In this document: in pieces, positions 6,185-61,458 of the stretch | Numbering within the stretch: the first letter of the stretch is position 1 | Layout: each line of letters begins with the position of its first letter | Origin: Candidatus Omnitrophota bacterium | GTDB taxonomy: Bacteria; Omnitrophota; Gorgyraeia; Tantalellales; Tantalellaceae | Direction: 5' to 3' | Length of the DNA stretch: 64,000 nucleotides | Assembly: GCA_043812935.1 (NCBI GenBank) | Contig: JBDRLO010000059.1 | Location: 929 to 64,928, forward strand | Position numbers and translations under genes: made by a program | The notes under the pieces: model-generated | What the model was told of the DNA's origin: nothing | Databases searched by the model: none | Seen by the model: only the letters and a program-made list of their open reading frames with translations

Positions 6185-6224
6185 AAACCGGTAAACCGGC
6201 TAACCAGCTAACCGGCTAACCAAC
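6185..6224. repeat. Five tandem 8-nt units (plus strand aaaccggt aaaccggc taaccagc taaccggc taaccaac; minus strand GCCGGTTA-like)
   Basis: Read directly. Immediately downstream of the pilB-2 stop codon (6224-6226). Confidence 0.8.
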
Positions 6225-7930
6225 TATGTGACTCTCAAAACCTCTTCCAATGTAGTCCACCCTTTTATAAACTTTATCATAGCATTATCACGTAAAGTCC
6301 TTACACCTTTTGAATCCAGATATTGCCTTATATCTCCTTCGGATTTTCTTTTATTTATCATTTCTTTTAAAGTATTATCAATAAGCAGTGTTTCCAATGT
6401 CCCTAAACGGCCGTAATACCCTGTTCCGTTGCATAAATCACAGCCTTTTCCATGAAAATATTTTCCGGTTTCAATATACTTTTTATATTTGCATTCTATT
6501 TCTTTGAGAACTTTTTCCGGTATTTTTGTTTCAGTTTTACAATTGGGGCAAATTTTCCGAAGAAGCCTCTGCGCACATGACATAATCAGACTCGACGCGA
6601 TAAGAAACGGCTCTATGCCCATATTTTCAAGACGTGTAATCGCACCCACCGCGTCATTTGTATGAAGCGTACTCAAAACCATCTGTCCAGTCAGAGACGC
6701 TTTAATCGCGATATCAGCGGTCTCAAAATCACGAATTTCACCTACCATAATTATATCCGGACTCTGTCTGAGCAGTGCCCTTAATCCACTGGCAAAATCC
6801 AACCCAATTTCCGGATAAGCTGCGATCTGAGTTATTCCCGTAAGCTGATATTCAACAGGATCTTCTACTGTAATAATATTTTTTTCCGGGACATTCATTT
6901 TATTAAGAACAGAATAAAGCGTTGTTGATTTACCGCTTCCAGTCGGCCCTGTTACCAGAATTATGCCAAAAGGTTTTTCAAGGGCTTTTTTAAAATCATC
7001 TAATGGTTCCGGTAAAAAACCTAAAGTCTCCAATCCAACCGACAAATTGCTCTTATCAAGCGCTCTAAGAACTATTTTGTTTCCAAAAGCCGTAGGTAAA
7101 GAAGAAACCCTGAAATCAATTTCTTTACCCTCATACTTTGTACGAAACCTGCCGTCTTGCGGCGCCCGGGTTTCCGTAATATCTAAACTGGACATTATTT
7201 TTATTCTTGCTAATATCGCTTTCTGGTTTTTCGAAGGTAAATCAAAAATATCATGCAGTTTCCCATCCACACGAAAACGTACGCGTAAAGATTTTTCCTG
7301 CGGTTCAATATGAATATCACTCGCGCGTTTTCGTATAGCCTCACTTATAATAAGATCCACCATCTTAATTATAGGCGCAGCTTTACTTTCCTGAGTAATT
7401 TCCAGCATATCAAAACCCTCAGATTTTTCTATAATCTCTACCTCTGATTTCTCCTTCTCATCTTCAATAACCGTTAAAATATCTTCTTCCGCGCTTTTAA
7501 AAAAACCCCGGATAGATTCCTGAATTTGACGGCGCATCGCAACCACCAACTTTATGTTACACCCGGTAACAGATTTAATATCGTCAATTGCTAAAATATC
7601 CGTCGGGTCATAAACAACCAACGTAAGGTCATTACCAATTTGCGACAAAGGTACAATCGAATAACGCCGGATAAGCTTTTCCGGGATTAGATTCATGCTC
7701 TCTTCGGTCAAAGTTAATCGTGAAAGGTCAAGAGGAGGAACATTTAATTCACGGCTTAATACGGTTAAAAAACCCATTTCCGGAACAAGATCCGTTTCCG
7801 CGAACATTTTGATAACATCACTTTCATTTTTCGCACGCACTTCCGCCAACAGATCGTTTAAACGTTTTTCGTCTATTAATCCATCTTCCTTTAATGCCTT
7901 TAATATTCTGTCTTTCAATGATTCTGCCAT
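6224..7930 (-). CDS. pilB: Type IV pilus / T2SS assembly ATPase (GspE/PilB family), paralogue 2
   Basis: 568 aa. Walker A GPTGSGKST, tetracysteine CPNC...CDLCNGTGY, N-terminal T2SSE_N-like region with degenerate MshEN motifs. Confidence 0.9.
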   Translation of the reverse strand: MAESLKDRILKALKEDGLIDEKRLNDLLAEVRAKNESDVIKMFAETDLVPEMGFLTVLSRELNVPPLDLSRLTLTEESMNLIPEKLIRRYSIVPLSQIGNDLTLVVYDPTDILAIDDIKSVTGCNIKLVVAMRRQIQESIRGFFKSAEEDILTVIEDEKEKSEVEIIEKSEGFDMLEITQESKAAPIIKMVDLIISEAIRKRASDIHIEPQEKSLRVRFRVDGKLHDIFDLPSKNQKAILARIKIMSSLDITETRAPQDGRFRTKYEGKEIDFRVSSLPTAFGNKIVLRALDKSNLSVGLETLGFLPEPLDDFKKALEKPFGIILVTGPTGSGKSTTLYSVLNKMNVPEKNIITVEDPVEYQLTGITQIAAYPEIGLDFASGLRALLRQSPDIIMVGEIRDFETADIAIKASLTGQMVLSTLHTNDAVGAITRLENMGIEPFLIASSLIMSCAQRLLRKICPNCKTETKIPEKVLKEIECKYKKYIETGKYFHGKGCDLCNGTGYYGRLGTLETLLIDNTLKEMINKRKSEGDIRQYLDSKGVRTLRDNAMIKFIKGWTTLEEVLRVT

Positions 7931-10124: not shown

Positions 10125-10141
10125 TTCTGCTCCTTATTCAT

Positions 10142-10200
10142 GGGGTCAGACCTCGAAAATCGAAAATACATTGTATTTTCGATTTTCGAGGTCTGGCCCC
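10142..10200. repeat. 59-nt near-perfect palindrome (29-nt arms) between pilT and the MshEN gene
   Basis: ggggtcagacctcgaaaatcgaaaataca t tgtattttcgattttcgaggtctggcccc. 28 of 29 positions are complementary; the exception is T10146/G10196. Confidence 0.9.
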
Positions 10201-10207
10201 ATTTATT

Positions 10208-11290: not shown

Positions 11291-11318
11291 TGTACGCGTT
11301 TCACGCTGCACGTTTTAT
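11291..11318. repeat. Heptad tract, 4 units (tgtacgc gtttcac gctgcac gttttat)
   Basis: Read directly. Same GTTNCAC family as 28359-28414 and 41601-41663. Lies in the spacer upstream of pilT. Confidence 0.7.
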
Positions 11319-11331
11319 GCATACCCTAAAA

Positions 11332-11349
11332 CAGGTAGCATGCTACCTG
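11332..11349. repeat. 18-nt perfect palindrome caggtagcatgctacctg (GCATGC centre)
   Basis: Self-complementary by inspection. Lies in the GGDEF-pilT spacer. Confidence 0.85.
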
Positions 11350-11364
11350 CAACGTGTTACGCTC

Positions 11365-12783
11365 TTATCCCTCACCCAACACTTTGTTTTTCCCGCTTTT
11401 TTTCGCTGTATCCGCGTAATGTCGGGCTTTCTTTATAATGTCTTTACCATTAACACCGTCAATAGGGTTTTCACTTACTCCGATACTCACCGTAATTCGA
11501 TCATCTTGTGATGAAGAAATTTTCATAGTTTCAATTTTTTTTCGTATTTCCTCGGCCATTTCAAGACTCTCTCTCTTATTTATTTCCGGTAAAAGAATCC
11601 CGAATTCACCATCATCAGAACGCGCGATTTTACCTACTGAGGGAATAATCCCTCCAAGGAGTTTACCCACCTGCCTTAAAACCTGCTTTGTCTTTTCTTC
11701 TCCATAATAATTGGCATACTCATCGAAATCATCTATTTCAACCATAATCAGAGAACAAGGCCTTTGGTAATAAACAGCTCTATTAATTTCATCATTTAAA
11801 CGTTCTTCAAGATACGATAACGTATAAAGCCCCGTAATGTTATCAACAATTTCTAAGCTTTTTACTTTTTTAAACACCTGCGCGCTTTGATAAGCTAACC
11901 CGATTTCCTTCTCAAAAGCTCTAAGCATATCCACTTGTTCATCCTCAAACACGGTTCCTTTGGTAAAACTTCCCAGCACAATAATTCCTACAATATTTTC
12001 TGATATCTTTATCGGGAAAAATATTAAGTTCATATTCCCTAATTCATCCTTCATTTCCTTTTGCCACGGTTTCTTTAAAGCCTGTGAATCTATTGCAATA
12101 TATTCTTCTTCAATTAAAAATTTTTCAACTGACAACATATGCTCTTCAAGCTTTTTTGCCTGTAAATCTTGGCCTGAATTGTTATGTACCGCTTTTAAAA
12201 CATATTTTGATGAATCTTCCTTAATAAAAACCGCAGAAAACCCGCCATATATCTCATTTGCTATCTTATCAGCGGCAAAATCCGAAATTTCACTGAATTC
12301 ATTACCCGCGCTTATCAGATCTCCCAACTGCATTAAGTTAGTCAAAGTAAGCACTTTCTTGTGTATCTGAAGATTTAAAGATGCTGTTTTCTCGCTGTAT
12401 TCCTGTAATTCTCCAATATAATTACGGATTTTCGATGTCATGGTGTTAACCGCGTTCGCTATATCGCCTAATTCGTCATCTCGATTAATTATAACTTTCG
12501 AATCGTAACGTCCATTAGCAATATTTTTTGCTTCCACTGCTAATCCGATAATAGGAACAATTATTCTTTTTGCAAGCATATATCCGGCAGCCGCGAGCCA
12601 CAAAGCAAAAACCACAATAAGAGTAGCCTGGAATATCCGTTCCGGAGCATCAAAAACATAATTAGTAAGTATATATGCCAACACTAAAAAAGGTATAATT
12701 GACATAAGCGAAACAGCCACCAACAGTTTATACCTTACTCCTTTTCGAGCTGATCCTGAATTTGTTTCTTTAGGTTTCGCCAC
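11365..12783 (-). CDS. Membrane sensor with HAMP, GAF-like and degenerate GGDEF domains
   Basis: 472 aa. TM segments at the N-terminus, HAMP-like DELGDIANAVNTMTSKIRNYIGEL. The GGDEF-fold C-terminus reads ARSDDGEFGILLP where ARYGGDEFAILLP is expected. GTG start with GGGAGGTG upstream. Confidence 0.85.
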   Translation of the reverse strand: MAKPKETNSGSARKGVRYKLLVAVSLMSIIPFLVLAYILTNYVFDAPERIFQATLIVVFALWLAAAGYMLAKRIIVPIIGLAVEAKNIANGRYDSKVIINRDDELGDIANAVNTMTSKIRNYIGELQEYSEKTASLNLQIHKKVLTLTNLMQLGDLISAGNEFSEISDFAADKIANEIYGGFSAVFIKEDSSKYVLKAVHNNSGQDLQAKKLEEHMLSVEKFLIEEEYIAIDSQALKKPWQKEMKDELGNMNLIFFPIKISENIVGIIVLGSFTKGTVFEDEQVDMLRAFEKEIGLAYQSAQVFKKVKSLEIVDNITGLYTLSYLEERLNDEINRAVYYQRPCSLIMVEIDDFDEYANYYGEEKTKQVLRQVGKLLGGIIPSVGKIARSDDGEFGILLPEINKRESLEMAEEIRKKIETMKISSSQDDRITVSIGVSENPIDGVNGKDIIKKARHYADTAKKSGKNKVLGEG

Positions 12784-18256: not shown

Positions 18257-18308
18257 TTTTCAGCTCATTTAAGCACAGCTGTCCGATAAAAATAACTTTT
18301 TTATTGTT

Positions 18309-18336
18309 GTAAAGGCCAGGCATGCCTGGCCTTTAC
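18309..18336. repeat. 28-nt perfect GC-rich palindrome gtaaaggccaggcatgcctggcctttac between mreC and mreD
   Basis: Self-complementary by inspection (12-bp stem plus CATG loop). Confidence 0.85.
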
Positions 18337-18395
18337 GGTTTCTGTCGTCTTCTTCCTCAAAACACGTAAGCTGCCGCACATAACATGTGGCACAA

Positions 18396-22740: not shown

Positions 22741-23496
22741 CTAGGGGCGGGATTTCCCCGCCCAATAAATTTGTAACAGAACAAAGAGAGCCAGCCCGAT
22801 CAGAAAAGTACCCAACCCAATAACCTGGGAAAGTTTTATGCCCCAAACCAATACAAGATTGTCTCCTCTTAAAAAATCCATAAAAAAGCGAACAATGCCA
22901 TATAAAATTAAATATAAAGCAAAAATGCTACCTTGAAATAAACGATACCGCCTCAATTGCAACAATAGAAAACATATTAAAAAAAGAACCAAGCTCGAAT
23001 AAAGCTGTACCGGCATTCTGCATACATCTTCACCGGGAAACATAACCCTCCACCCGTTTTGAATAATTTTCCCATAACAACATCCATTAAAAAAACATCC
23101 TATTCGCCCGAAAGCCTGCCCCAGGACAATATACGGGACAATCAGGTCACTCATTTTCCAAAATGATATTTTTTTTACACGGCAAAAAATAATACCGGAA
23201 AAAACCGCGGCAATTAAAGCTCCCTGAAACGCAAGGCCTCCTTCGTGAAACATTAATATCCTTAAAGGAAAACGCAAATAATATTCCCAATTAATACACA
23301 CATATAAAAGACGCCCGCCAATTAATCCACTAATTAAAAGCGTTATTAGACAATCTAAAATGGTTCCTTTTGAAATTTCAGTGTATTTATTCGCACCGCG
23401 AAGCAAAAAAAACGCTGACATCAAAAACCCTATCGCTACGCACAAACCGTACGAATAAAAAGTAACAGGTCCTATTTGTAAAAAAACACGGTGCAT
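22741..23496 (-). CDS. lgt: Prolipoprotein diacylglyceryl transferase
   Basis: 251 aa polytopic protein. GRIGCFFNGCCYG motif typical of Lgt. Confidence 0.9.
   Translation of the reverse strand: MHRVFLQIGPVTFYSYGLCVAIGFLMSAFFLLRGANKYTEISKGTILDCLITLLISGLIGGRLLYVCINWEYYLRFPLRILMFHEGGLAFQGALIAAVFSGIIFCRVKKISFWKMSDLIVPYIVLGQAFGRIGCFFNGCCYGKIIQNGWRVMFPGEDVCRMPVQLYSSLVLFLICFLLLQLRRYRLFQGSIFALYLILYGIVRFFMDFLRGDNLVLVWGIKLSQVIGLGTFLIGLALFVLLQIYWAGKSRP
22744..22763. repeat. GGGGCGGG-ATTT-CCCCGCCC hairpin embedded in the last codons of lgt
   Basis: Same family as 28614-28633 and 38948-38967 but in inverted orientation. Encodes the terminal WAGKSRP plus the stop. Confidence 0.8.
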
Positions 23497-28341: not shown

Positions 28342-28358
28342 ATATCTTTGTATCCCTA

Positions 28359-28414
28359 TGTTTACGTTGCGCGTTACACGTGGCACTTAGTGCGTTTCAC
28401 GTACATTAATGTTA
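28359..28414. repeat. Heptad tract, 8 units (tgtttac gttgcgc gttacac gtggcac ttagtgc gtttcac gtacatt aatgtta)
   Basis: Read directly with strict 7-nt phase. Begins 18 nt upstream of the yggU ATG and abuts the REP array. Confidence 0.75.
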
Positions 28415-28604
28415 CGGACAGGCACAGGGGCCTGTCCCTACGGTTTACTTCCCGGATTTTTCAATTACGGACAGGCACAGGGGCCTGTCTCTACGGTTTT
28501 ACTTCCCGGATTTTTCAATTATGGACAGGCACGGGGGCCTGTCCCTACGGTTTTACTTTCCGGATTTTTCAATTACGGACAGGCACGGGGGCCTGTCCCT
28601 ACGG
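28415..28604 (-). repeat. Tandem array of four REP-like units (53-54-nt period)
   Basis: Each unit is hairpin cGGACAGGCacrgggGCCTGTCCctac plus conserved linker ggtttacttcccggatttttcaatta. Unit starts at 28415, 28468, 28522 and 28576. The minus strand reads GTAG followed by the palindrome. Confidence 0.9.
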
Positions 28605-28613
28605 TTTTCATTA

Positions 28614-28633
28614 GGGCGGGGAAACCCCGCCCC
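28614..28633. repeat. GGGCGGGG-AAA-CCCCGCCC hairpin followed by CTAC
   Basis: 8-bp GC stem read directly. Second hairpin family, flanking REP array 1. Confidence 0.85.
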
Positions 28634-28652
28634 TACGCCGATCCACTCGACA

Positions 28653-28688
28653 TAACCGGCTAACTGACTGACTAACCGGCTAACCGAT
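28653..28688. repeat. Octamer repeats of the taaccggc family, partly inside the yggT 3' end
   Basis: taaccggc taactgac tgac taaccggc taaccgat. Same family as 6185-6224. Confidence 0.6.
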
Positions 28689-28971
28689 ACGCAATCTGAT
28701 ATATAACATTCACAATAAAACTTTTTAAAAGGCTTAACACTAAAAAAGCAAGTATCGGAGAAAAATCCATAGCCCCCACGCGCAAAGGAAGCGCACGAAA
28801 AGGAGCCAAAATTGGATCCGTAATCTTGTAAATTATTCTCACAATCTCGTTATATGGATCCGCTCCAACCCATGAAATAATAATCCGGATAATTAAAACA
28901 AAATACAAAATGTTAAATACAAGAGACACCAAAAGACCGATACTTTTCAATAATTCCCCAAGTATAAACAT
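28672..28971 (-). CDS. yggT: YggT (YlmG) family membrane protein
   Basis: 99 aa, two TM segments. Conserved ILSWV..DPYN....I..ITDPIL.PFR pattern. Confidence 0.8.
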   Translation of the reverse strand: MFILGELLKSIGLLVSLVFNILYFVLIIRIIISWVGADPYNEIVRIIYKITDPILAPFRALPLRVGAMDFSPILAFLVLSLLKSFIVNVIYQIAYRLAG

Positions 28972-31892: not shown

Positions 31893-31939
31893 TATCCCTC
31901 CTTACTTATGGTTAGCCCTTACACCCATTAGCCGGTTGG

Positions 31940-38900: not shown

Positions 38901-38947
38901 AATATTTCATCAATGTTCTTTCTTCTTAATCACATAGGTTTTTATCC

Positions 38948-38967
38948 GGGCGGGGAAACCCCGCCCC
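38948..38967. repeat. GGGCGGGG-AAA-CCCCGCCC hairpin followed by CTAC
   Basis: Identical to 28614-28633. Lies in the 259-nt mraY-murD spacer. Confidence 0.85.
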
Positions 38968-39006
38968 TACTGGTCAACCGGCGTAAGGAGCTAACCGACA
39001 TCTTAC

Positions 39007-39115
39007 CGGACAGGCACAAGGGCCATGTACCACACAGGGTACATGGCAAGACCTGTCCCTACGGTTTACTTCCCGGATTTTTCAATTACGGACAGGCACG
39101 GGGGCCTGTCCCTAC
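39007..39115 (-). repeat. Two REP-like units, the first carrying a nested second palindrome in its loop
   Basis: 39007-39064: cggacaggcacaagggc CATGTACC acacag GGTACATG gcaagacctgtccctacgg. Then the conserved linker and a canonical unit at 39089-39115. Confidence 0.85.
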
Positions 39116-39127
39116 ATCAATAATTTC

Positions 39128-39155
39128 GTGTAGCGTGAAACGTATTACGTGTCAC
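39128..39155. repeat. Heptad tract, 4 units, opposite orientation (gtgtagc gtgaaac gtattac gtgtcac)
   Basis: Read directly. The plus strand carries the GTGNAAC form here, inverted relative to the other tracts. Confidence 0.7.
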
Positions 39156-39159
39156 GCTT

Positions 39160-40248
39160 TTATCGTACCTTAAGCGTTGCAATACTTACAAGAGCTAAAA
39201 TCGCAGCAACAATCAGAAAACGCATGGTAACTTTTGCTTCATGCCACCCTTTTATCTGAAAATGGTGATGTATCGGCGACATAAGAAAAACTCTTTTTTT
39301 ACGGGTCTTGAAAGACACAACCTGGATAATAACGGACAAGGCTTCAACAACTAATACCCCGCCCGCTATTAACAATAAAACTTCTTTTTTTATCAAAACA
39401 CTAATAATCGCGATTGCGCCGCCAAGAGAAAGCGCGCCTGTATCTCCCATAAAAATAGTCGCGGGATAACTGTTAAACCACAGGAACCCTAATCCAGCTC
39501 CAGTTAATGCTGAGCAAAAAACAGCTAACTCCCCTGAACCGGGCAAATAAAACACTTGAAGATATTTACTAAGCGCAGCGTGTCCCGTAATATAGCTAAA
39601 AACAGCATATGTAAAAGTAATAAATACCATACATCCTATAGCCAGACCATCAAGACCGTCTGTCAGGTTTAAAGCATTTGAAGCGCCAACAATAACTAAA
39701 AGAACAAAAACAATATAAAACAAACCTAGATTGCAAACCGCGTTTTTCACAAAAGGTATATATAAATCCGAACCAATTTGTTTACTATGCAGAACAAAAA
39801 GGCCTACAATTAAAGCAAGAACCACTTGCCCGACTAATTTGGTTATACCGCGGATACCTTTAGCGCTTTTGTTTCTGATTTTAATATAATCATCAACAAA
39901 CCCGACACATCCAAGCCATATCATACCGGAAAGCGCCAACAACACATAATCATTATTAATCCGGCACCACAAAAGTGAGGATACGGTTACAGCAACAATA
40001 ATTAAAACCCCGCCCATTGTCGGGGTTCCTTCTTTATGTTTATGCAAGTCATATAACCCCTTAACGTGTTCTTTTCTTACATACTGTCCTATCTTAAAAA
40101 GTTTAAGACGCTCTATAATAAATGGCCCGACAATCACACAAATTACAAAAGAAGTTACCGCGGCCATACTGGCACGAAAAGTAATATATTTAAAAACATT
40201 AAAACCAAACCAAATTTCCGTTAGTGGATATAAGATGTCGTATAACAC
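39160..40248 (-). CDS. mraY: Phospho-N-acetylmuramoyl-pentapeptide transferase
   Basis: 362 aa polytopic protein. NLTDGLDGLA and FMGDTGALSLGG motifs. Confidence 0.95.
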   Translation of the reverse strand: MLYDILYPLTEIWFGFNVFKYITFRASMAAVTSFVICVIVGPFIIERLKLFKIGQYVRKEHVKGLYDLHKHKEGTPTMGGVLIIVAVTVSSLLWCRINNDYVLLALSGMIWLGCVGFVDDYIKIRNKSAKGIRGITKLVGQVVLALIVGLFVLHSKQIGSDLYIPFVKNAVCNLGLFYIVFVLLVIVGASNALNLTDGLDGLAIGCMVFITFTYAVFSYITGHAALSKYLQVFYLPGSGELAVFCSALTGAGLGFLWFNSYPATIFMGDTGALSLGGAIAIISVLIKKEVLLLIAGGVLVVEALSVIIQVVSFKTRKKRVFLMSPIHHHFQIKGWHEAKVTMRFLIVAAILALVSIATLKVR

Positions 40249-41594
40249 TTCAGAACTTCCTCCATTCTTGAAGACCTTGACCCTTTTAATAAAATCATAG
40301 CTTCAGGGCATGACATCATTCGAATCATTTCAGCCGCCTCTTCATGATTCGAAACATGCGCGATTAAATCCTTTTTCATGCCTTTTTCCCCTGCCCCATT
40401 AGCGATATGAACGGCTTTTTTTCCCAATACAATTAAAAAATCGATATTCTTGTCCGCAATGCTTGCTCCGATTTTTTTATGAAAATTTTCACTTTCTTTC
40501 CCCAATTCCGCCATATCACCCGCAACAACTCCTTTTCTGGGAGCTTTACAACTCTCTAAAAATCTAAGCGCGGCTTCAAACGATTCAGGATTAGCATTAT
40601 AGGAATCATTAATAAACACACGCCCGCCGGCTATTGTTTTTTCAAGACGCATTTTCGGTAATGAGATTTTTTCTAAACTTTTGTAGATATCCTTATAACC
40701 AATCCCAAAAAATTCGGCTACGGATATAGCCGCGGCAGAATTATAAACATTATGAATTCCTTTTAACGGAATAAAATACTTTCTCTTGTTAACACAAAAT
40801 TCATATCCGTCAGTTTTTTCCAAAATTTTATCAACATAGAAATCGCTACCCGGTTTTGTTCCAAAAAACTCTATCAAAAATTTTTCACGCGAAACATCTG
40901 ACAACAAATCATCATCTATATTAAGAAAACCTTTTCCATTTTCACGCAAATATTTTAAAAGACTCATCTTTTCCTTTAAAACACCTTTTTTGTCAGAAAA
41001 ATACTGCAAATGTCCATTTCCGATATTTGTAATAACCGCAACATCCGGCCCGGCAATTCTGGATAATTCAGCAATTTCACCCGGATAATTCGTTCCGAGC
41101 TCAACAACAGCCATATCATAATCTACGGTTAAATTAAATAAAGTCAAGCTTACCCCGACAATATTATTATACGATTTGATACTTCGCAACACTTTATATT
41201 TAGAAGAAAGTACCTCGGCTAAAATATCTTTAACTGTAGTTTTCCCGTTAGTGCCCGTTATGCAGATTACCGGAATATTTATTCTCCTCCTTATTTCTTC
41301 AGCTATCCTGCCCATAGCCCTAAAATTATTCTGTGTAAGAATAATATGTCCGATTTCCTGCTTTAAAAGCTTATCATTAACACGCTCGACAATTATTCCC
41401 ATAGCTTTTTTTCTGACAGCTTCATTAATATAATCATGTCCGTCAAAATTTTTCCCCTTAAGCGCTATAAAGAACTGCCCGGGACGTATTGTCCTGGAAT
41501 CAACGGAAAACCCTTCCTCAATCAATTTTTTTTTGTTTTTTGAGGATAATTTTCCACCCGTAATTTCAGATATCTCTTCAACTGTAAATTTCAT
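40221..41594 (-). CDS. murF: UDP-MurNAc-tripeptide--D-Ala-D-Ala ligase
   Basis: 457 aa. GTNGKTT and DSYNANPES motifs. Confidence 0.95.
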   Translation of the reverse strand: MKFTVEEISEITGGKLSSKNKKKLIEEGFSVDSRTIRPGQFFIALKGKNFDGHDYINEAVRKKAMGIIVERVNDKLLKQEIGHIILTQNNFRAMGRIAEEIRRRINIPVICITGTNGKTTVKDILAEVLSSKYKVLRSIKSYNNIVGVSLTLFNLTVDYDMAVVELGTNYPGEIAELSRIAGPDVAVITNIGNGHLQYFSDKKGVLKEKMSLLKYLRENGKGFLNIDDDLLSDVSREKFLIEFFGTKPGSDFYVDKILEKTDGYEFCVNKRKYFIPLKGIHNVYNSAAAISVAEFFGIGYKDIYKSLEKISLPKMRLEKTIAGGRVFINDSYNANPESFEAALRFLESCKAPRKGVVAGDMAELGKESENFHKKIGASIADKNIDFLIVLGKKAVHIANGAGEKGMKKDLIAHVSNHEEAAEMIRMMSCPEAMILLKGSRSSRMEEVLKCYTTSYIH

Positions 41595-41600
41595 AATTTT

Positions 41601-41663
41601 GCGTTACATGTTTCACGTTGCAGGTTACACACTACACGTTACAAGTTACACGTTGCACGTTTT
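41601..41663. repeat. Heptad tract, 9 units (phase GTTNCAC: gttacat gtttcac gttgcag gttacac actacac gttacaa gttacac gttgcac gttttct)
   Basis: Read directly with strict 7-nt period. Begins 7 nt upstream of the murF ATG (41594); no Shine-Dalgarno sequence is evident in between. Confidence 0.85.
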
Positions 41664-41703
41664 CTAAAACAAAAAAAATAGCGTCTTAATTTGTGATATA
41701 AAC

Positions 41704-41738
41704 CTGTTTCGTGCCGCATGCTACATGTTACGCGTCTT
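41704..41738. repeat. Second heptad block, about 5 units (ctgtttc gtgccgc atgctac atgttac gcgtctt)
   Basis: Read directly. Just downstream of the murE stop (41743). Confidence 0.6.
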
Positions 41739-41742
41739 TTAA

Positions 41743-43218
41743 TCAATAACCTTTGTTTTTTAAAACCTTCAGGGCAATTTTGCAATCATCAAACGGAAGT
41801 ACCCGATCACCTACTATCTGATAGTTTTCATGTCCTTTGCCGGCAATAACAACTATGTCTTCCGGTTCTGCCGCATCTATGGCAGCATTTATGGCAGCTT
41901 CACGCACTTCTATTATACTATACCTGGCCCCTTTCACCATTCCTTTTTCAATTTGTTTAAGTATTTCACAAGGATCTTCCCGCCTGGGGTTATCATTTGT
42001 AAGTATTATATTATCACAAAAATCACTCGCGATTTCCCCCATTAACGGCCTTTTTAACTTATCCCTGTCCCCGCCGCACCCAAAAACACAAATGAGCTGT
42101 TTCTTTGCCAATCCCCGGAGAGCCTCCAATAAATTTTTTAAAGCATCAGGAGTATGCGCGTAATCTACAAAAACTTTAAAGGGCGCATTTGAACAGACAT
42201 TTTCAAGCCTACCAGGCACTTCAATAAAACTTTCCAAAGTATTTTTTACAATTTTCAGATTTATATTGTTATTAATGAGCGCGCCGACAGCTGACAAAAC
42301 ATTGTAAACATTATGCGTACCGATAAGTCTCGATTTAATAAAAACCCGTCCGCATCCCTTTACTTCCAGATTAAATTCTGTCCCTGACGCGGACAATTTA
42401 ATGTTTTCCGCTCTTACATCGGCATTTTTTGACATTCCAAACCCAACAAATTCAGGAAAATTAATAACTTTCTTTAATCCGATAACCATCGGATCGTCAA
42501 CATTAAGAACCGCTGTTCCGTCCGGTTTTAAATTCTGAAATATTTTTGATTTATCATTTAAATATGCTTCCATATTTTTATGATAATCCAAATGTTCCGG
42601 AGTAATATTGGTAAAAACCGCGGTATCCAGATTAATTCCGTAAACCCTTTTTTGACTAAGCGCATGGCTTGACATTTCAATGACTGCCGAATTTTTCCCC
42701 TCTGAAAGCATATCAGATAAAAAGCTATTAAGCGCCACCACATCCGGAGTTGTAAGATTAGAACGCTCAAAAACATTATTTCTTTTCTGGGTAAAAACCG
42801 TACTAACAAACGCGCTGGAATTACCATGAGCGTTTAACAACGCGTTTATCAAAAACACCGTGGTAGTTTTACCATTTGTCCCGGTCACTCCGAAAACGTT
42901 GAGCTTATCCGACGGATCTCCAAAAACATGTTTTGCCGCATATCCAAGCGTTTCCCTGACATCATTAACAACGATAACACGCTTTAATTGTTCTTGCGTT
43001 ACCCCTGATGGTTTTTTTTCGCAAAAAACCCGCCGTGCGCCTTTTTTTATAACATCACAGATATAGCAATGCCCGTCAAAAATAACACCTTTAACGGCAA
43101 AAAAAACATCGCCGGGACAAACCATTCGGGAATCCGTTTTAATATTCAGTTTGTTAATATAATTCCCTTTAATAAGGCCATTAACTATATTCATATTTTC
43201 AAAGTCAGAATAAGACAT
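41743..43218 (-). CDS. murE: UDP-MurNAc-L-Ala-D-Glu--2,6-diaminopimelate ligase
   Basis: 491 aa. GTNGKTT motif. A DNPR motif (LTNDNPRREDP) suggests meso-DAP specificity. Confidence 0.95.
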   Translation of the reverse strand: MSYSDFENMNIVNGLIKGNYINKLNIKTDSRMVCPGDVFFAVKGVIFDGHCYICDVIKKGARRVFCEKKPSGVTQEQLKRVIVVNDVRETLGYAAKHVFGDPSDKLNVFGVTGTNGKTTTVFLINALLNAHGNSSAFVSTVFTQKRNNVFERSNLTTPDVVALNSFLSDMLSEGKNSAVIEMSSHALSQKRVYGINLDTAVFTNITPEHLDYHKNMEAYLNDKSKIFQNLKPDGTAVLNVDDPMVIGLKKVINFPEFVGFGMSKNADVRAENIKLSASGTEFNLEVKGCGRVFIKSRLIGTHNVYNVLSAVGALINNNINLKIVKNTLESFIEVPGRLENVCSNAPFKVFVDYAHTPDALKNLLEALRGLAKKQLICVFGCGGDRDKLKRPLMGEIASDFCDNIILTNDNPRREDPCEILKQIEKGMVKGARYSIIEVREAAINAAIDAAEPEDIVVIAGKGHENYQIVGDRVLPFDDCKIALKVLKNKGY

Positions 43219-46649: not shown

Positions 46650-47084
46650 CTAATCCAAAAGTTTTTCAGCTATATCTTCATAATTCTCTTTTGAATTTTT
46701 ATAAAAATTTTCCCATTTTTTCTTATCCCATATTTCTATTCGATTGGAAATCCCGACTATAACGATATCCCTTGTTAACCCCGCGTACTGCCTTAAGTAA
46801 TCCGGTAAAAGTATTCTCCATTGTTTATCCGGAATAACTTCTCCGGCACCGGAAAAAAACATTCTCCGAAATTTTCTTACTTCTTTTTTGGTAAATGACA
46901 TTTCTTTAAACTTGTTTTCCTGCACCCTCCATTCATTTTCCGGAAACATAAACAGACATTCATCTAATCCACGGGTTATATAAAACTTTTCTATACCCAT
47001 TTCTTCTATGGCATCGCGAAACCGCGCCGGTATTATTAAGCGGTTTTTCTTATCTAAGATATGTATATGTTCCCCATAAAACAT
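46650..47084 (-). CDS. mraZ: Transcriptional regulator MraZ
   Basis: MFYGEHIHILDKKNRLIIPARFR... and a second SpoVT/AbrB-like repeat (DKQWRILLPDYLRQYA). Internal start chosen (GGAGGAAAG upstream), because the extended track ORF would contain the predicted promoter. Confidence 0.9.
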   Translation of the reverse strand: MFYGEHIHILDKKNRLIIPARFRDAIEEMGIEKFYITRGLDECLFMFPENEWRVQENKFKEMSFTKKEVRKFRRMFFSGAGEVIPDKQWRILLPDYLRQYAGLTRDIVIVGISNRIEIWDKKKWENFYKNSKENYEDIAEKLLD

Positions 47085-47085
47085 T

Positions 47086-47112
47086 CCACTTTCCTCCACT
47101 TTTATCCACTTA
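47086..47112 (-). promoter_or_regulatory. Three direct GTGGA repeats with about 10-nt period (candidate MraZ operator)
   Basis: Minus strand AAGTGGAtaaaAGTGGAggaaAGTGGAATG. Spacing inferred from the ORF-track translation KWIKVEESGM. Coordinates are +/-1 nt. Confidence 0.5.
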
Positions 47113-47120
47113 CAATAAAG

Positions 47121-47149
47121 AGTATACACATGAAATGGGAACATGTCAA
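47121..47149 (-). promoter_or_regulatory. Candidate dcw (mraZ) promoter
   Basis: Minus strand TTGACA (47149-47144), 17-nt spacer, TATACT (47126-47121), about 35 nt upstream of the mraZ ATG. Confidence 0.45.
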
Positions 47150-47486: not shown

Positions 47487-50400
47487 TTACGCATACTTTA
47501 TCATTTCTCTGATATTCCGATTTAACTCAATTAAAAGGTCATGGTCAAGTTCCCGGCACTCCGGCAAGACAAAAACTATTTCTCTCATAAAATCTTGTAT
47601 AGTTTTAATGTCTTCCGATGGGTCTAAATTTTTACCAGTTATCAATTTATACACTTCATACAAACGCTCAAGATTATTCGAATGCAACGCGCGAAGCGCC
47701 AAGATAATACCTTCCACTTGTACAAAACTTTTTTCATCTACTCTGAATGCAAGCGCTTTTGTTCCCAGTTCCTTTTCAATCCGTTTGTTAACACCCGTAT
47801 CAGGCGCAGCCACATCAAAATCAACTTCAATACCTTTTTCCTTATAATACTTTCTCAGCCTTTTCATTTCTTTTGTCAATTCCTCAATAAAATCCACAGT
47901 ATTGCTCCCCTCTAGCCGTACTATTTTTTCTTTATATTTATCCTTACGCGTTTCCTGCTCGAGTTCCTGCACCATTTGTTTTTGAAGTTCACCGGGAATA
48001 ATTGAATCCGCGATAATGTGACAAAGTACTCGTTCTTTCTTGATACCCGAAGTAAGTTCAAGGTTCTTCATCGGATTAAATTCAAGATCTTTCATGAATA
48101 TTTTTTCAGAAATTTGTTTTATTTTATCTCTTCTTTTTCGTTTATTTTTTTTCGTAATTTTAACTTCATGCCAGCTCTCTCCCCTTGCCGCTACATGCCC
48201 GCAAAATGCTGTAATATCAGGATGGTACTTTGAAAAAAAATCACTAATTCTTCCAAGCAAATTATGCCCATTATTTACAATTTTATCGACATAAGCTTCA
48301 GCAATATAAGCATATTCACCTTCTGACACATTTTCCGGGATATAGCCAAGGCTTTCTCCTTTTTTTACTCTCTCCTTTTCATTACTGTTTAATAACCAAT
48401 AAGTTGTGAAAGCAACAATTTTATTTTTGAAATCTTTTGCTACGATTAAAAGCTTTTTTTCTGCCAAACCCGCACAATAATTTATAAAAAACTCTTCTCT
48501 CGAAACTCCAAACTCCATATAAAAATAATTATTATCAGGTATCCCCGGACCATTCTCATTCATTTCTATAATCTTTTCCGCAATTTCCTTTATCTCTGAT
48601 TCATCGGGCACGCAAACCAAATACTCTTCTTCATTCTTGTGCTCTTTTATTTCCCGCACTAATAAAAATTCATTCGCAGTAAATGACGGATCTTTTCCGT
48701 TTCTCGGAAACGTTATCTCTTCATCTAATGTAATCGAACTGAATCCTGCACGTTTAATCGCTCTTTTCATGCCCTCACAATTGGACCAATACTGCTCATC
48801 TGTTGATAGCAAAATCTTACTAACTCCTCTTTTACGCACCTCTCCCTCAAACCCATCCAGCACCTTCTTCAGAAACTGGTCATAATCCAGATTAAGTCCA
48901 GGCACAGGCTGTATGCCAGTCAATACCCATACAAGATCTTCTCCCAGTTTTCTTTCAGCAACATAGATATAACCATCTATCCTTTTTGATCCTTCGATCA
49001 ATATCCTGTATAAATAAAAATCTTTTTCATAAATAGCTTCTTCATTCTTCCCGATACAATCATATACCACACTTGAATAATTAAGATCTATTTTTTGCTT
49101 TGCAGGAACCAGCCGGATATATACCTCTCGTACAGTTTCTGTCTTTACCTTCTCCATTTCTCTATCAACATCTGCTATTGCTTTATTATTACGGTAAAAC
49201 TCTTTTATAATATCCCATTTTTTTGGCGAGATAATATCCGCGTCAGGATTTATATCTAAAATTGCTGATTTTATTACGTCCAAATACCTGTCAGTATAAA
49301 TATTATTTAAAAGCTCCATCATACTGTAACGCTCTTTGGGCGATGAAGCATCACTATACGAATTGATAAGTTTATGTTCGCCACCACCAATACGTTCCTT
49401 CACAATAATTGCTAATACCAGAATGCCAAACATTTGTCTGATATTATTACGAAATTCGGATTTGTTTTCGTGAAAATATACCGCTATCCTGCCAGTGAGC
49501 GCTTTCAAATATGATAACGTTAAAACGTCATCTTTAAATATGTCTTCAACTGAACTAAGATTATATTTTTTCAGGAAATCCCCATTTAGCGGATTAATAA
49601 TAGATTTGTTGTATACACATAATCCGCTAGCTTTAATTAGTTTCGGCAAAGCCTCTTTCCAAAAAACATTATCACGATCTGATTCTGTATTCTGAGTTTC
49701 CTGTTTTAACTGATTTTTCTCTGACTTATTTTTTGCATTGTAACCACAAAATTCAAACAATTTCGTCAATGCCTCATTACACGAAATCCTCCCACTATTT
49801 AGCAATACCATGAGAGTTTCATGATAATGCCTAATAATTCCTTTGTTTATTGGCGCCCCTGTATACATTATCTCACGCATACTGAAAGGAGGCACTTTGC
49901 TCAAATTCTGCGGCATAGCCGGCAGTTTCTCAGACAAAAGAAGGCGGTTTTTAAATGTATCATAATCAAGAGATTTAGTATCTTTATCCGATATTCTCGC
50001 GCCTCTTACAATCGCATACGCAAGAAGCATTTCTATTTCATTTGTTGTATTAATATCTTTTCTAGCAAATAGAATATCATCTCTTATCCTGTTATATTCA
50101 TATATTCGCTTTTGAATATCTTCATTATGCGCAATAAGATTTTGCGTTAAGTACGGCTGAAAAATAAATTCTGTTATATTTTCTTTTTCCATAAGACGAT
50201 TAAATAATTCGAGAAGCAATTTACCTCTAGCTGCTCCCGGGTCACTCTTTATAATATACGGCAAGACATATACTCCCAACATCTGATAATTTGGGTTTCT
50301 CGCTTTTCGTTTTAAATGCCGGATCAAATGGGTGTATTTTTTCACCAAAGCTACATTCTTTACTTTCGACTCTATTGCAAGATTTATTGCCTCATCTAAT

Positions 50401-52856
50401 TTAGGTATTCTCCACAATTGCACCATACGCTCATTTGCCGAGGTTGTTATCATTATATTTTCATCCACGTCTATACATGTATTTATACGTTTGACCCAAC
50501 CCGTGTCGCCCTTTAATGCGATTGTCCGCACTCTAGTCTTTCTTTTCCACACCTCTTTATCCATTCTCCACAACCGTACTGTCATATCGTTTGACATACT
50601 CGTTACTATTAGATTCCCTTCTCCATCCATATACGTATTTACATAGTTAACCCAATCCGCATGCCCTTTTAATACTATTTCCCGCAAATTACCTATCGCA
50701 TCTATTCTCCACAACCGTACAGTATTATCCCTTGACGCGCTAGTTACTGTTATGTTTCCTTCTCCATTTATGCTGGTATCTGTATAGCTGACCAAACCAA
50801 TATTCCCCCTCAATATTATCACCCGCACATTTCCCTTCTGATCTTTGTTCCAAACTTCTCTGTCTATTTTCCATAATCGTACTGTCGTATCTTTTGACCC
50901 GCTCGTTACTGTTAGATTTCCTTCTCCATCCATATGCGTATTTATATGATACACCCAATCAGTATGCCCATTTAATACTACTTTCCGCACGTCAACCTCT
51001 TTACCGCTCTGCCACATATTTTTATCTATTCTCCACAACCATACCGTTTTACCAAATGAACTACTCGTTACTATTATGTTTCCTTCTCCATCTATTTGTG
51101 TATTTATATGCCTCGCCTCGATACTATGCCCCTTTAGTACTATCGTACACACCTTACCCGCTTCCTTATCTACTCTCCATAAGCGTACTGTTTCATCAAG
51201 TGACCCGCTTGTTACTATTATGTTTCCTTTTTCGTCTATGTATGTATTTATATGATTGACTGCACCAGTATGTCCCTTTAATTCTACCGTCCGCACCTTA
51301 CCCGCTTGATCTATTTTCCACAAGCGTACCGTATTGTCATGTGAACCACTCGTTATTGTTATATTTCCAGCTTCGTCTATATGAGTATAGGTACGGCAAA
51401 CCAAACCAGTGTGCCCTTTCGCACCGCCTAATACCATTGTCAATGCTTTACCTTCTTTATTTATCCGCCACAAACGTATTGTCTTATCATGCGAACCGCT
51501 CGTTACAACTATATTTTTATCACGGTCTATGTGAGTGTTTACATGCTCGACAACGTCAGTATGCCCCTTTAATACTTTCTGGATTCGGTCTTTTTCTTTC
51601 AACTCGCATTCAGTCCAAATAGCATTTTCTACATTTTCCCACACGGCATTATAAGTCTCTCTTCCTACATCCTTCACCTCCTCAAAGGAAACCTCCCCGG
51701 TTTTCTCCCATTGAACCTTACTCATTTTTGGAGTAACAGTAAAAGAATCCATTTCCATCGAAGAAACCACAGGCCCTGTTAAATCCGAATCCAAAACTGA
51801 AAGAGAAAGAACTCCGTTAGTTTTGTCTTTTTTCCGGGTTTCTTCTTTACTAAAATCACCAAAAGAATAATCTCTATCACGCCGCGCGTCCATATCAACA
51901 AATCGGCATTCGGATAAATCAATAGCCCAGTTTGAAACAATTTTGAGCCTGGCAATTATTTTCCTGGGACAAAATTCCTCATCCTTATTCTTCCAATAAG
52001 TATATTCTCTACAAATCACATCTTTAACGTCTTTGCTGTCATTAATTGAGGTGGGGATTCCCAATTTTGCTAATATCTCATGAATAATGGCAAGTTCCAA
52101 TTCTATCGGCTTCTTTCGAGCTTTAACATGAATTGCCCGATTAGAAACATGATCTATTTCCTCGGCAGGTACATGGTCATACCCTACAACTTTAAATATT
52201 GCCCTCTTGTTCGCAAAATCCGAAATATCAGCTACCATAGAACTTTTTGAAGCGTCCGGACTAATTTCAAAAGTTTCTTCTATTTCTTTAAAAAAGTTAA
52301 GAACATTTCCTATCGGCTCGCTGAAAAAACTAAGCACAACTCTTCCCTTGGCAGAAGCATCACTATCATCAGTTATTGTTTTTAAACTAGAGAGAAAAGC
52401 ATCTTTCTTTTCCTGATGCTTAAGATATATTTTCATTTCACGAATAGTATAGACATGCACATCAAAGTTACAATCACCATTTGTAGGATTCAAACCTTCG
52501 TCTACATAGGCAATATATTTCGCTCCGCTCACCCAACACGGAATTAGATATCCGCCTAATTTCTTATGAGAGACTCGTTTATTAAAGCCTAAAATGATAG
52601 GTTTTTTATCCAAAAATGTTTCGCGCGCAGAAACAGCATTACACAAAAGAGTTTCGTCTGTCTTTAGTTCTCTAATTAAAGCTATCTTTATCAATTTTTC
52701 ATCCGGCAAACGATCAAAGATGGATTGAACACCTAACGTATTAGAATTATAGCCATAGTCATACGCCCACACAAAACTGTTAATTAAAAACAGGCACGCT
52801 ACAACCATTACTAAGGCCTTTAGCCAAATACTATATTTATTTTTATAGTCATTCAT
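47487..52856 (-). CDS. Giant secreted multidomain protein (1,789 aa) with an eight-blade WD40-like propeller; function unknown
   Basis: Signal/anchor IWLKALVMVVACLFLINSFVWA-YD. Eight repeats of KGHTxxVxxxNTxxDxxGNIxVTSGSxDxTVRLWRID (aa 428-817). Long C-terminal region with two weak GNAT-like segments. No Walker A motif. Confidence 0.85.
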   Translation of the reverse strand: MNDYKNKYSIWLKALVMVVACLFLINSFVWAYDYGYNSNTLGVQSIFDRLPDEKLIKIALIRELKTDETLLCNAVSARETFLDKKPIILGFNKRVSHKKLGGYLIPCWVSGAKYIAYVDEGLNPTNGDCNFDVHVYTIREMKIYLKHQEKKDAFLSSLKTITDDSDASAKGRVVLSFFSEPIGNVLNFFKEIEETFEISPDASKSSMVADISDFANKRAIFKVVGYDHVPAEEIDHVSNRAIHVKARKKPIELELAIIHEILAKLGIPTSINDSKDVKDVICREYTYWKNKDEEFCPRKIIARLKIVSNWAIDLSECRFVDMDARRDRDYSFGDFSKEETRKKDKTNGVLSLSVLDSDLTGPVVSSMEMDSFTVTPKMSKVQWEKTGEVSFEEVKDVGRETYNAVWENVENAIWTECELKEKDRIQKVLKGHTDVVEHVNTHIDRDKNIVVTSGSHDKTIRLWRINKEGKALTMVLGGAKGHTGLVCRTYTHIDEAGNITITSGSHDNTVRLWKIDQAGKVRTVELKGHTGAVNHINTYIDEKGNIIVTSGSLDETVRLWRVDKEAGKVCTIVLKGHSIEARHINTQIDGEGNIIVTSSSFGKTVWLWRIDKNMWQSGKEVDVRKVVLNGHTDWVYHINTHMDGEGNLTVTSGSKDTTVRLWKIDREVWNKDQKGNVRVIILRGNIGLVSYTDTSINGEGNITVTSASRDNTVRLWRIDAIGNLREIVLKGHADWVNYVNTYMDGEGNLIVTSMSNDMTVRLWRMDKEVWKRKTRVRTIALKGDTGWVKRINTCIDVDENIMITTSANERMVQLWRIPKLDEAINLAIESKVKNVALVKKYTHLIRHLKRKARNPNYQMLGVYVLPYIIKSDPGAARGKLLLELFNRLMEKENITEFIFQPYLTQNLIAHNEDIQKRIYEYNRIRDDILFARKDINTTNEIEMLLAYAIVRGARISDKDTKSLDYDTFKNRLLLSEKLPAMPQNLSKVPPFSMREIMYTGAPINKGIIRHYHETLMVLLNSGRISCNEALTKLFEFCGYNAKNKSEKNQLKQETQNTESDRDNVFWKEALPKLIKASGLCVYNKSIINPLNGDFLKKYNLSSVEDIFKDDVLTLSYLKALTGRIAVYFHENKSEFRNNIRQMFGILVLAIIVKERIGGGEHKLINSYSDASSPKERYSMMELLNNIYTDRYLDVIKSAILDINPDADIISPKKWDIIKEFYRNNKAIADVDREMEKVKTETVREVYIRLVPAKQKIDLNYSSVVYDCIGKNEEAIYEKDFYLYRILIEGSKRIDGYIYVAERKLGEDLVWVLTGIQPVPGLNLDYDQFLKKVLDGFEGEVRKRGVSKILLSTDEQYWSNCEGMKRAIKRAGFSSITLDEEITFPRNGKDPSFTANEFLLVREIKEHKNEEEYLVCVPDESEIKEIAEKIIEMNENGPGIPDNNYFYMEFGVSREEFFINYCAGLAEKKLLIVAKDFKNKIVAFTTYWLLNSNEKERVKKGESLGYIPENVSEGEYAYIAEAYVDKIVNNGHNLLGRISDFFSKYHPDITAFCGHVAARGESWHEVKITKKNKRKRRDKIKQISEKIFMKDLEFNPMKNLELTSGIKKERVLCHIIADSIIPGELQKQMVQELEQETRKDKYKEKIVRLEGSNTVDFIEELTKEMKRLRKYYKEKGIEVDFDVAAPDTGVNKRIEKELGTKALAFRVDEKSFVQVEGIILALRALHSNNLERLYEVYKLITGKNLDPSEDIKTIQDFMREIVFVLPECRELDHDLLIELNRNIREMIKYA

Positions 52857-56395: not shown

Positions 56396-56522
56396 TGGAC
56401 AGGCACGGGGGCCTGTCCCTACATATTTATTTCCGGGTGCCGGACAGGCGCAGGGGCCTGTCCCTACATGTTTATTTCTGGGTGCCGGACCAGGCGGGTA
56501 CATAGCAAGGCCTGTCTCTACA
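56396..56522 (-). repeat. Three REP-like units (45-nt period) with a different linker
   Basis: Units at 56396-56422 and 56441-56467, plus a degenerate unit at 56486-56522. Linker is atrtttatttcygggtgc. All end in CTAC on the plus strand. Confidence 0.85.
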
Positions 56523-61343: not shown

Positions 61344-61420
61344 CGGACAGGCACAGGGGCCTGTCCCTACTCATCATTCCATATATGCAATCCCGGACAG
61401 GCACAGGGGCCTGTCCCTAC
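61344..61420 (-). repeat. Two REP-like units (50 nt apart) between guaA and purL
   Basis: cggacaggcacaggggcctgtccctac occurs at 61344-61370 and 61394-61420. Confidence 0.9.
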
Positions 61421-61427
61421 ATATTTG

Positions 61428-61458
61428 TTTTGTCATTTGAATTTTGTCATTTGTCATT
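61428..61458. repeat. Direct repeat ttttgtcatttg x2 plus tcatt
   Basis: Read directly. Immediately downstream of the guaA stop. Confidence 0.7.

Follow-up and report, generated by a model that had tools for sequence, protein, structure and literature searches.

The present analysis concerns a 64-kb window (64,000 nt, positions 929 to 64,928 of contig JBDRLO010000059.1, assembly GCA_043812935.1) from the genome of a Candidatus Omnitrophota bacterium, in which phased tandem repeats of 7 nt form six blocks distributed among four intergenic spacers. The repeated unit has the consensus AACGTGY on the array strand (A-A-C-G-T-G-(T/C/A), derived from 29 units), and this repeat family belongs to the heptanucleotide long simple sequence repeats (SSRs) of bacteria, which are STRR-like. 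The arrays show the features of this class: a 7-nt unit repeated head-to-tail beyond chance, a dispersed intergenic recurrence and a presence that differs between close relatives. The explanation that we favour, as probable rather than established, is that AACGTGY is a lineage-specific heptanucleotide repeat family and one module of a mosaic of short repeats that invaded formerly tight or overlapping gene junctions.

Heptanucleotide arrays of the window

The first-pass annotation of this DNA had recognised phased 7-nt repeats in intergenic spacers, and their reality was confirmed by several measures. A search for three consecutive AACNTGN units with at most two mismatches returned 9 matches in the window compared to 0.10 ± 0.33 in dinucleotide shuffles (n = 100), none of which (0/100) reached nine matches. 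A scan for four-unit tandems with at least 19 matches out of 28 found five tracts compared to 0.1 in second-order Markov simulations of the window. Furthermore, in an unbiased autocorrelation of 3-mers over all intergenic DNA, maxima appear at lags of 7, 14 and 21 nt (3.35, 3.19 and 3.44%, respectively, compared to about 2.5%), and coding DNA displays only the 3-nt period. Within the 64-kb window, the periodicity is thus far beyond what shuffled controls produce. The motif was also sought in related genomes: the heptad scan was negative over 31 kb from a sister species and over 79 kb from four related Omnitrophota genomes; in 194 kb of unrelated loci, it returned one marginal match.

All heptad blocks lie within intergenic DNA, which represents 8.6% of the window. 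The identities previously assigned to the genes (MurE, MurF, MraY, MurD, YggU/DUF167 and a PilT-like T2SSE protein) were borne out, and MurF is 100% identical to the NCBI protein MFH1395382.1 from a Candidatus Omnitrophota metagenome-assembled genome. Two blocks are located in the 148-nt spacer between murE (41743-43218) and murF (40221-41594), both genes being on the minus strand. Block A (41599-41661, minus strand) consists of nine strictly phased heptads (aacgtgc, aacgtgt, aacttgt, aacgtgt, agtgtgt, aacctgc, aacgtga, aacatgt and aacgcaa); Tandem Repeats Finder (TRF) assigns a 7-nt period to it at 41602-41661, counting 8.6 copies that match at 73% and are free of indels (0%). Nine units had also been counted previously, at coordinates about 2 nt too low (the unit gttacat starts at 41603 and not at 41601). 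The 3′ end of block A lies 4-6 nt before the murF ATG (41594), the value being 6 if the last two bases of its degenerate final unit are not counted. Block B (41709-41736, minus strand) begins 6 nt past the murE stop codon and comprises four weak, degenerate heptads (gacgcgt, aacatgt, agcatgc and ggcacga) with about 4.25 matches out of 7 per unit. It had been proposed as about five units at 41704-41738; a second tract is indeed present but is shorter, and the register analysis places it 2 nt out of phase with block A. The middle of the spacer (41662-41708, minus strand) is a non-heptadic, AU-rich segment of 47 nt, predicted to be the loop that separates block B from block A in the folded spacer, so that heptads make up about two-thirds of this spacer rather than nearly all of it, as had been assumed.

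The yggU-proximal tract (28362-28403, minus strand) is real but includes about six degenerate units instead of eight; it lies 20 nt upstream of the yggU ATG (28341) and is the terminal module of a composite structure that occupies the whole 330-nt yggT-yggU spacer. The mraY tract (39125-39159, plus strand) was correctly described as inverted relative to the genes: it includes five heptads (ttcgtgt, agcgtga, aacgtat, tacgtgt and cacgctt) and its 3′ end directly adjoins the stop codon of mraY (39160-39162). The GGDEF-pilT spacer contains a hairpin whose direct arm (11294-11314, minus strand) carries three heptads (aacgtgc, agcgtga and aacgcgt) located 24 nt upstream of the pilT-like ATG (11269), with a GGAG Shine-Dalgarno (SD)-like motif in between. 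This is the tract that had been noticed near pilT, and its inverted partner had been overlooked: the inverted arm (11337-11364, plus strand; agcatgc, tacctgc, aacgtgt and tacgctc) touches with its 3′ end the stop codon of the GGDEF gene (11365-11367). A possible degenerate heptad tract (gtgccac, atgttat, gtgcggc, agcttac, gtgtttt) was also seen in the mreC-mreD spacer (18257-18395), which holds in addition the perfect palindrome aaaggccaggcatgcctggccttt.

In all six AACGTGY blocks, the AAC-3′ end faces the nearest gene boundary, which is a start codon for three blocks (murF, yggU and pilT) and an abutting stop codon for two (mraY and GGDEF). The location of the repeats just upstream of start codons, as initially put forward, thus applies to the three blocks that end 6-24 nt before an ATG, with GTGNAAC on the coding strand, and not to the two inverted blocks; expressed in tracts, this small sample amounts to three forward out of five and two inverted at stops.

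It had also been proposed that neighbouring units could pair in many alternative registers. This is true in principle, since an ideal (AACGTGT)x9 array reaches -18.6 kcal/mol, compared to 0.0 kcal/mol for nine units of TAACTGA or AACCTGA, but the real murE-murF spacer behaves differently. In its minimum free energy fold, block B is paired to the opening units of block A, yet the spacer as a whole is no more stable than shuffles (z = -0.2); block A alone has a z of -1.5 and the yggU tract a z of +0.3. Only the hairpin of the pilT spacer (-34.2 kcal/mol, z = -4.8 compared to shuffles) is significant among the spacers folded. A search of the whole window against Rfam gave no match at the gathering score; this result and the murE-murF fold led us to drop an identity as structured RNA. 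Neither a promoter-like site nor a terminator consensus was found in the murE-murF spacer. As previously pointed out, murF has no visible SD, but this carries little weight because only 24 of the 45 genes of the window have an SD-like motif. Furthermore, the murF gene of the sister species likewise lacks an SD, indicating that the array did not replace one.

Repeat modules and gene junctions in relatives

The sister species (83% identity for MurF and 81% for ProC) has the same gene order in the dcw cluster, and four further Omnitrophota relatives (AroA identities of 62-64%) are collinear with the part of the window at 10-31 kb. The comparison with the sister species applies to loci other than yggT-yggU, as its contig stops inside yggT, and to proteins other than AroA, for which no orthologue was found. 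The murE-murF spacer of the sister species has 32 nt compared to 148 nt here and is devoid of heptads; it carries a single ATGACAAA. In the four other relatives, the yggT-yggU junction ranges from -4 to +4 nt (330 nt in the window), the GGDEF-pilT junction from 3 to 50 nt (95 nt in the window) and the mreC-mreD junction from -4 to 28 nt (139 nt in the window). Scans for the heptads, for both of the GC-rich hairpin families described below and for a paired 8-mer motif found none of them at the loci of the sister species and of the four relatives. The absence of the arrays and the tightness of the junctions in the relatives point to insertions or expansions specific to the lineage rather than to conserved regulators of mur, yggU or pilT. 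From this comparison of sequences, the arrays appear to be recent lineage-specific insertions or expansions and not conserved control elements of their neighbour genes. A dedicated role at start codons is not supported, given their absence from the same junctions in the sister species and the four relatives and the two blocks that lie inverted at stops. A scan of metagenomes with MurF retrieved distant relatives only (at most 44% identity) and no conspecific contigs.

The heptads are part of a lineage-specific mosaic that also includes two GC-rich hairpin families and an 8-mer array. In the yggT-yggU composite, the inner modules (28412-28636) are four 54-bp units with a GGACAGGC...GCCTGTCC hairpin followed by a GGGCGGGG-AAA-CCCCGCCC hairpin, and an 8-mer array of GGTTAGCC/AACCGGCT type (28640-28690) occupies the yggT end. 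In the remainder of the mraY-murD composite (38944-39115), a GGGCGGGG hairpin is accompanied by an 8-mer-like stretch and by two GGACAGGC hairpin units, of which one is 97% identical to 28431-28494. The yggT-yggU spacer, read in gene sense, aligns with the opposite strand of the mraY-murD spacer and shows the same modules in the same order: GGGCGGGG hairpin, 54-bp GGACAGGC...GCCTGTCC units, short linker and heptads, the heptad segments being identical at about 22 of 28 positions. A single composite, of which the heptads are the terminal module, is thus present at both junctions, inverted in one relative to the other. Another plan is shared by the GGDEF-pilT and murE-murF spacers, with a left arm GCGTAACAyGTwGCA..GCA, a right arm AAAACGTGCAnCGTGnAAC... 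and a variable loop; both are hairpins with inverted, heptad-periodic arms.

The REP-like hairpin GTAGGGACAGGCCCCyGTGCCTGTCC recurs 10 times in the window (28412-28621, 39008-39115, 56397-56486 and 61345-61420), and four of these copies make up the 54-bp tandem array. Of the second family of GC-rich hairpins, TAGGGGCGGGG-(A/T)3-CCCCGCCC, there are three copies (22742-22763, 28610-28636 and 38944-38970), two of which belong to the heptad-bearing composites. The GGTTAGCC/AACCGGCT tandem 8-mers are intergenic as well (6186-6226 and 28640-28690, with weaker arrays at 31893-31939 and around 56560).

The REP/BIME sequences of enterobacteria and the BOX elements of pneumococci are intergenic mosaics of a few short modules, including GC-rich palindromes. 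The window displays this trait, as a few short modules including GC-rich palindromes are reused between genes in both orientations, and it also shares with these elements a variable copy number of modules and insertion between co-transcribed genes. To our knowledge, no heptad-array module exists in BIME or BOX elements, and the likeness is so far one of architecture.

Other repeats with a 7-nt period were observed near genes or hairpins of the window. Immediately downstream of the guaA stop codon begins the array (TGACAAA)x4.3 (61429-61458, gene sense), which adjoins two GGACAGGC hairpins. A near-perfect palindrome (10140-10202) between the PilT-like gene and the next gene has 31-nt arms that are 97% complementary and a 1-nt loop; each arm contains (TCGAAAA)x2, making it a further hairpin with heptad-periodic arms. 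In addition, stop codons are scarce on the strand opposite the genes where it runs through the heptad tract and the array of 54-bp hairpin units, which generates spurious open reading frames (ORFs) of 84-88 aa at 28348-28614 and 28409-28663 (both on the plus strand).

Relation to known heptanucleotide repeats and to arrays of other phyla

The first-pass annotation knew of no described element of this form. The form itself, i.e. intergenic arrays of heptamers, has been described several times, and it is the AACGTGY unit, its occurrence in Omnitrophota and the hairpin-linked mosaic that are new. According to the summaries of Mrazek (2007) given in PMC4679880 and PMC4692102, heptamers are the most abundant class of long SSRs and polymerase slippage has been suggested for them. 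The same two papers summarise the STRR sequences, tandem heptanucleotides reported in Calothrix (Mazel 1990). The TAACTGA repeat forms 169 sets in a Beggiatoaceae genome (MacGregor 2015, PMC4679880); most are forward and end one to a few nt upstream of start codons lacking a ribosome-binding site, S1, Csp or CsrA being the proposed readers, and the repeat is found in marine Beggiatoaceae, some Cyanobacteria and Bacteroidetes (PMC4679880). The arrays of GGGAATC in Xanthomonas and GGGGAYT in Nostoc include inverted pairs and vary widely, in both length and sequence, among close species (Rehm 2015, PMC4692102). The genome of Geobacter metallireducens harbours the GGACCGG x4 and MTYCTGA x5 families (PMC2700814). 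Finally, Nostoc heptamers located near start codons affect recF and recO reporters, and deletion of the heptamer changed the behaviour of the recO reporter in both Nostoc and E. coli (bioRxiv 10.1101/2022.06.06.494920). Our literature search on repeats of Omnitrophota or on GAAACCT, GAAACYT or AACCTGA arrays found nothing relevant.

AACGTGY and TAACTGA are both head-to-tail heptanucleotides that are dispersed over many intergenic sites with no functional pattern in the downstream genes; both have forward copies a few nt before starts, some of them without SD, a unit that carries stop codons, and a common TAAC core (TAAC-TGA compared to TAAC-GTG). However, the units differ (the closest rotation of AACGTGY is TAACGTG), and AACGTGY self-pairs (-18.6 kcal/mol for nine units) whereas TAACTGA is predicted to be unstructured. 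Moreover, TAACTGA sets are mostly perfect and have 2-6 copies, whereas AACGTGY arrays are degenerate, reach nine units, are tied to hairpin modules and have two of their six blocks inverted beside stops. With STRR and other long SSRs, as far as the summaries cited above describe them, the arrays share tandem 7-nt units, a strongly intergenic location, a patchy phylogeny, a proposed origin by slippage and the presence of several unit families per genome, the window also containing (TGACAAA)n and (TCGAAAA)2. They differ from these by their new phylum, their new unit and their short, decayed arrays, compared to the long perfect arrays reported in Nostoc and Microcystis. The GGGAATC and GGGGAYT repeats resemble AACGTGY in being intergenic heptamers that vary between close species, some forming inverted stem-loop pairs and some lying inside operons (pecE-pecF) (PMC4692102); they are G-rich and form G-quadruplexes, which AACGTGY cannot.

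A search for AACNTGN x4 in one genome per GTDB species, a pattern with 20 specified bases for which about one match is expected per 1.2e12 positions, found at least 120 stretches across many phyla; the scan covered this one class of heptamer and does not imply a special status for it among heptamers. The matches listed come from Bacteroidota (including Flavobacterium), Acidobacteriota, Desulfobacterota (including Desulfonema magnum), Chloroflexota, Verrucomicrobiota, Planctomycetota, Pseudomonadota, Bifidobacterium and bacteria of the Candidate Phyla Radiation (CPR). Their units include GAAACCT, GAAACTT, GAAACGT (which is the unit type of the window), GTAACCT, GCAACCT and GGAACTT.

These arrays have a marked polarity. 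Among the matches listed, 40 of 132 arrays have the start codon of an ORF with 80 codons or more no further than 15 nt from their 3′ end, compared to 6 of 132 when the mirror orientation is considered (p = 3e-7), and the 3′ end abuts opposite-strand stop codons almost as often as starts (24 compared to 29). The 5′ end adjoins a gene boundary in only 20 of the 132 arrays listed (p = 1.4e-4). An inverted partner array is found 5′ in 29 cases and 3′ in 4 (p = 1e-5), again among the matches listed, and in this set the inverted pairs form long stable hairpins of the type 5′-(CANGTT)n-loop-(AACNTG)n-3′ whose loops often enclose a GC-rich terminator-like hairpin. Sense-strand arrays close two or three reading frames and the antisense strand is open. 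The other tandem arrays detected at the loci listed have periods of 7, 14 and 21 nt in 78, 90 and 38 cases, compared to 22 for period 8. Many of the arrays listed were also seen to abut unrelated heptamers (TGATGCG, AGGTGTC, CTTACGA or TACCTCG).

The elements of the window fit this architecture and polarity. It is conceivable, but at present quite doubtful, that AACNTGN arrays are the arms of an unrecognised class of palindromic elements present across phyla, 5′-(CANGTT)n-loop-(AACNTG)n-3′, with outer AAC-3′ ends positioned at stops or starts. If so, a polarity kept across phyla would imply, in place of neutral slippage occurring independently, either a shared generating mechanism or a universal reader, for which the replisome, cold-shock proteins and the ribosome with S1 are candidates.

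Origin of the arrays and alternative explanations

If AACGTGY is indeed a module of a lineage-specific mosaic, small palindromic or composite non-autonomous units would have entered tight junctions, by analogy with REP/BIME or MITE elements. The heptad part would then have grown in 7-nt steps by replication slippage, which would account for its perfect phase and lack of indels; an origin by slippage, in line with the slipped-strand role hinted at in the first-pass annotation, is plausible on the same grounds. Subsequent decay of the arrays through point substitution would explain the 73% identity of the units. The arrays would be co-transcribed within operons, and any effect on the neighbour genes, such as sense-strand stops in all three frames, altered translational coupling or changes in RNA stability, would be a by-product and not the reason for their presence.

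Several points weigh against this explanation. The mobility of the composite is deduced from two copies, and the similarity of their heptad blocks is partly expected from the common consensus unit. No transposase or RAYT-like protein was found among the 19 proteins of the window scanned against Pfam, most other ORFs being unscanned. No target-site duplication was recognisable by comparison with the empty site of the sister species, as the spacers are too diverged. The mraY-murD spacer of the sister species may contain a degenerate trace (cgtatgt cgtacat and a weak GGGGCG hairpin); therefore, the term recent may not fit every site, and this one may predate the murE-murF array. The statistics on AACGTGY arrays cover 64 kb of the source genome rather than the genome as a whole. 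Lastly, the preference of AACNTGN arrays for a forward, start-proximal position (40 compared to 6) leaves room for selection on a function over mere tolerance.

This preference is also an argument for a post-transcriptional cis-element, i.e. an AACGUGY array serving as a leader or intercistronic platform on mRNA. Such a platform might be a site for a single-strand RNA binder with a footprint of about 7 nt, for example ribosomal protein S1 or a cold-shock-domain protein; alternatively, along the lines suggested for TAACTGA, the array might provide stops in three frames, insulating the start that follows and establishing initiation independent of an SD. The three forward blocks 6-24 nt upstream of starts, the lack of SD at murF and the closure of two or three frames by sense arrays, with the antisense strand open, are all in keeping with it, as are the equivalent proposal made for TAACTGA (PMC4679880) and the recO reporter effect in Nostoc and E. 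coli (bioRxiv 10.1101/2022.06.06.494920). However, neither the sister species nor the four relatives, whose junctions are tight or overlapping, carry the arrays at these genes, and murF of the sister species equally lacks an SD. Two of the six blocks are inverted and touch stops, and the near parity of stops and starts at the array ends listed (24 compared to 29) points to a polarity at the DNA level or to the hairpin architecture rather than to a leader function. Moreover, AACGUGY self-pairs, unlike TAACTGA and AACCTGA, and its units are degenerate. An RNA-level or translational role, as envisaged in the first-pass annotation, is thus possible but finds no support in these data, and we regard a cis-element as an unlikely explanation of the arrays.

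Copy-number phase variation had been proposed as well, with heptad slippage at a contingency locus switching or tuning the downstream gene. A unit that is not a multiple of 3 is a classic slippage substrate, the phase is held without indels, and heptamers are thought to be prone to slippage (Mrazek 2007, as summarised in PMC4679880). This explanation is nevertheless very improbable for the present arrays: they lie at operon-internal junctions of housekeeping genes (dcw cluster, yggT-yggU) with no promoter-like site, and neither inside ORFs nor between -35 and -10 boxes. Moreover, matching among their units reaches only 73%, and slippage is inefficient in imperfect repeats.

Even less can be said for an iterated DNA operator bound by an oligomeric protein, such as a MraZ-like regulator of the dcw cluster. 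Two of the sites are inside this cluster, where mraZ lies at 46650-47144, and direct heptameric repeats serve some regulators (SARP-LAL, PMC5930380). However, a 7-bp period without spacer makes successive sites rotate around the helix. The operators of MraZ have a period of about 10 bp and are located upstream of mraZ. The other sites are at unrelated genes (yggU and pilT), the sites are missing in relatives that keep the same genes, and they co-occur with unrelated repeat modules. A MraZ operator was rejected on period, position and lack of conservation, and an operator of any kind appears extremely improbable. Lastly, chance, composition or assembly can practically be dismissed: with its 37.5% GC, the genome is rich in AT and frequently shows short low-complexity repeats, but the nine matches far exceed those of shuffles, Markov simulations yield 0.1 tracts, no tract occurs in 110 kb from related genomes of equal GC content, and the units are imperfect with substitutions that differ from copy to copy, which is not the product of assembler collapse or duplication.

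Two other features of the window were noted. A gene located between a Fer4_5 gene and mraZ (47487-52856) encodes a WD40 beta-propeller protein of 1,789 aa; it contains eight tandem repeats of about 141-162 nt (50396-51576), and the sister species has only a 105-aa ORF at this place. A very long ORF on the minus strand extends from position 1 to about 3950 and runs off the start of the window; its translation, read by eye, contains HExxH-like motifs such as ihemvhll and vhelvah.

Among long simple repeats, heptanucleotide arrays are the most abundant in many bacteria, and this poorly understood class gains a new phylum and a new unit from the lineage-specific mosaic described here. The contrast between junctions that are tight or overlapping in relatives and 95-330 nt long and filled with repeats here shows that such arrays can enter essential operons without a conserved function. 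The arrays are also a hazard for annotation, as their antisense strand is open in all frames and yields spurious ORFs such as 28348-28614. The polarity and hairpin architecture that AACNTGN arrays display across phyla constitute the most interesting residue of this work. The association of the present arrays with hairpin modules and the polarity that they have in common with AACNTGN arrays of many phyla provide a concrete hypothesis on their origin, testable in cultivable carriers such as Flavobacterium.

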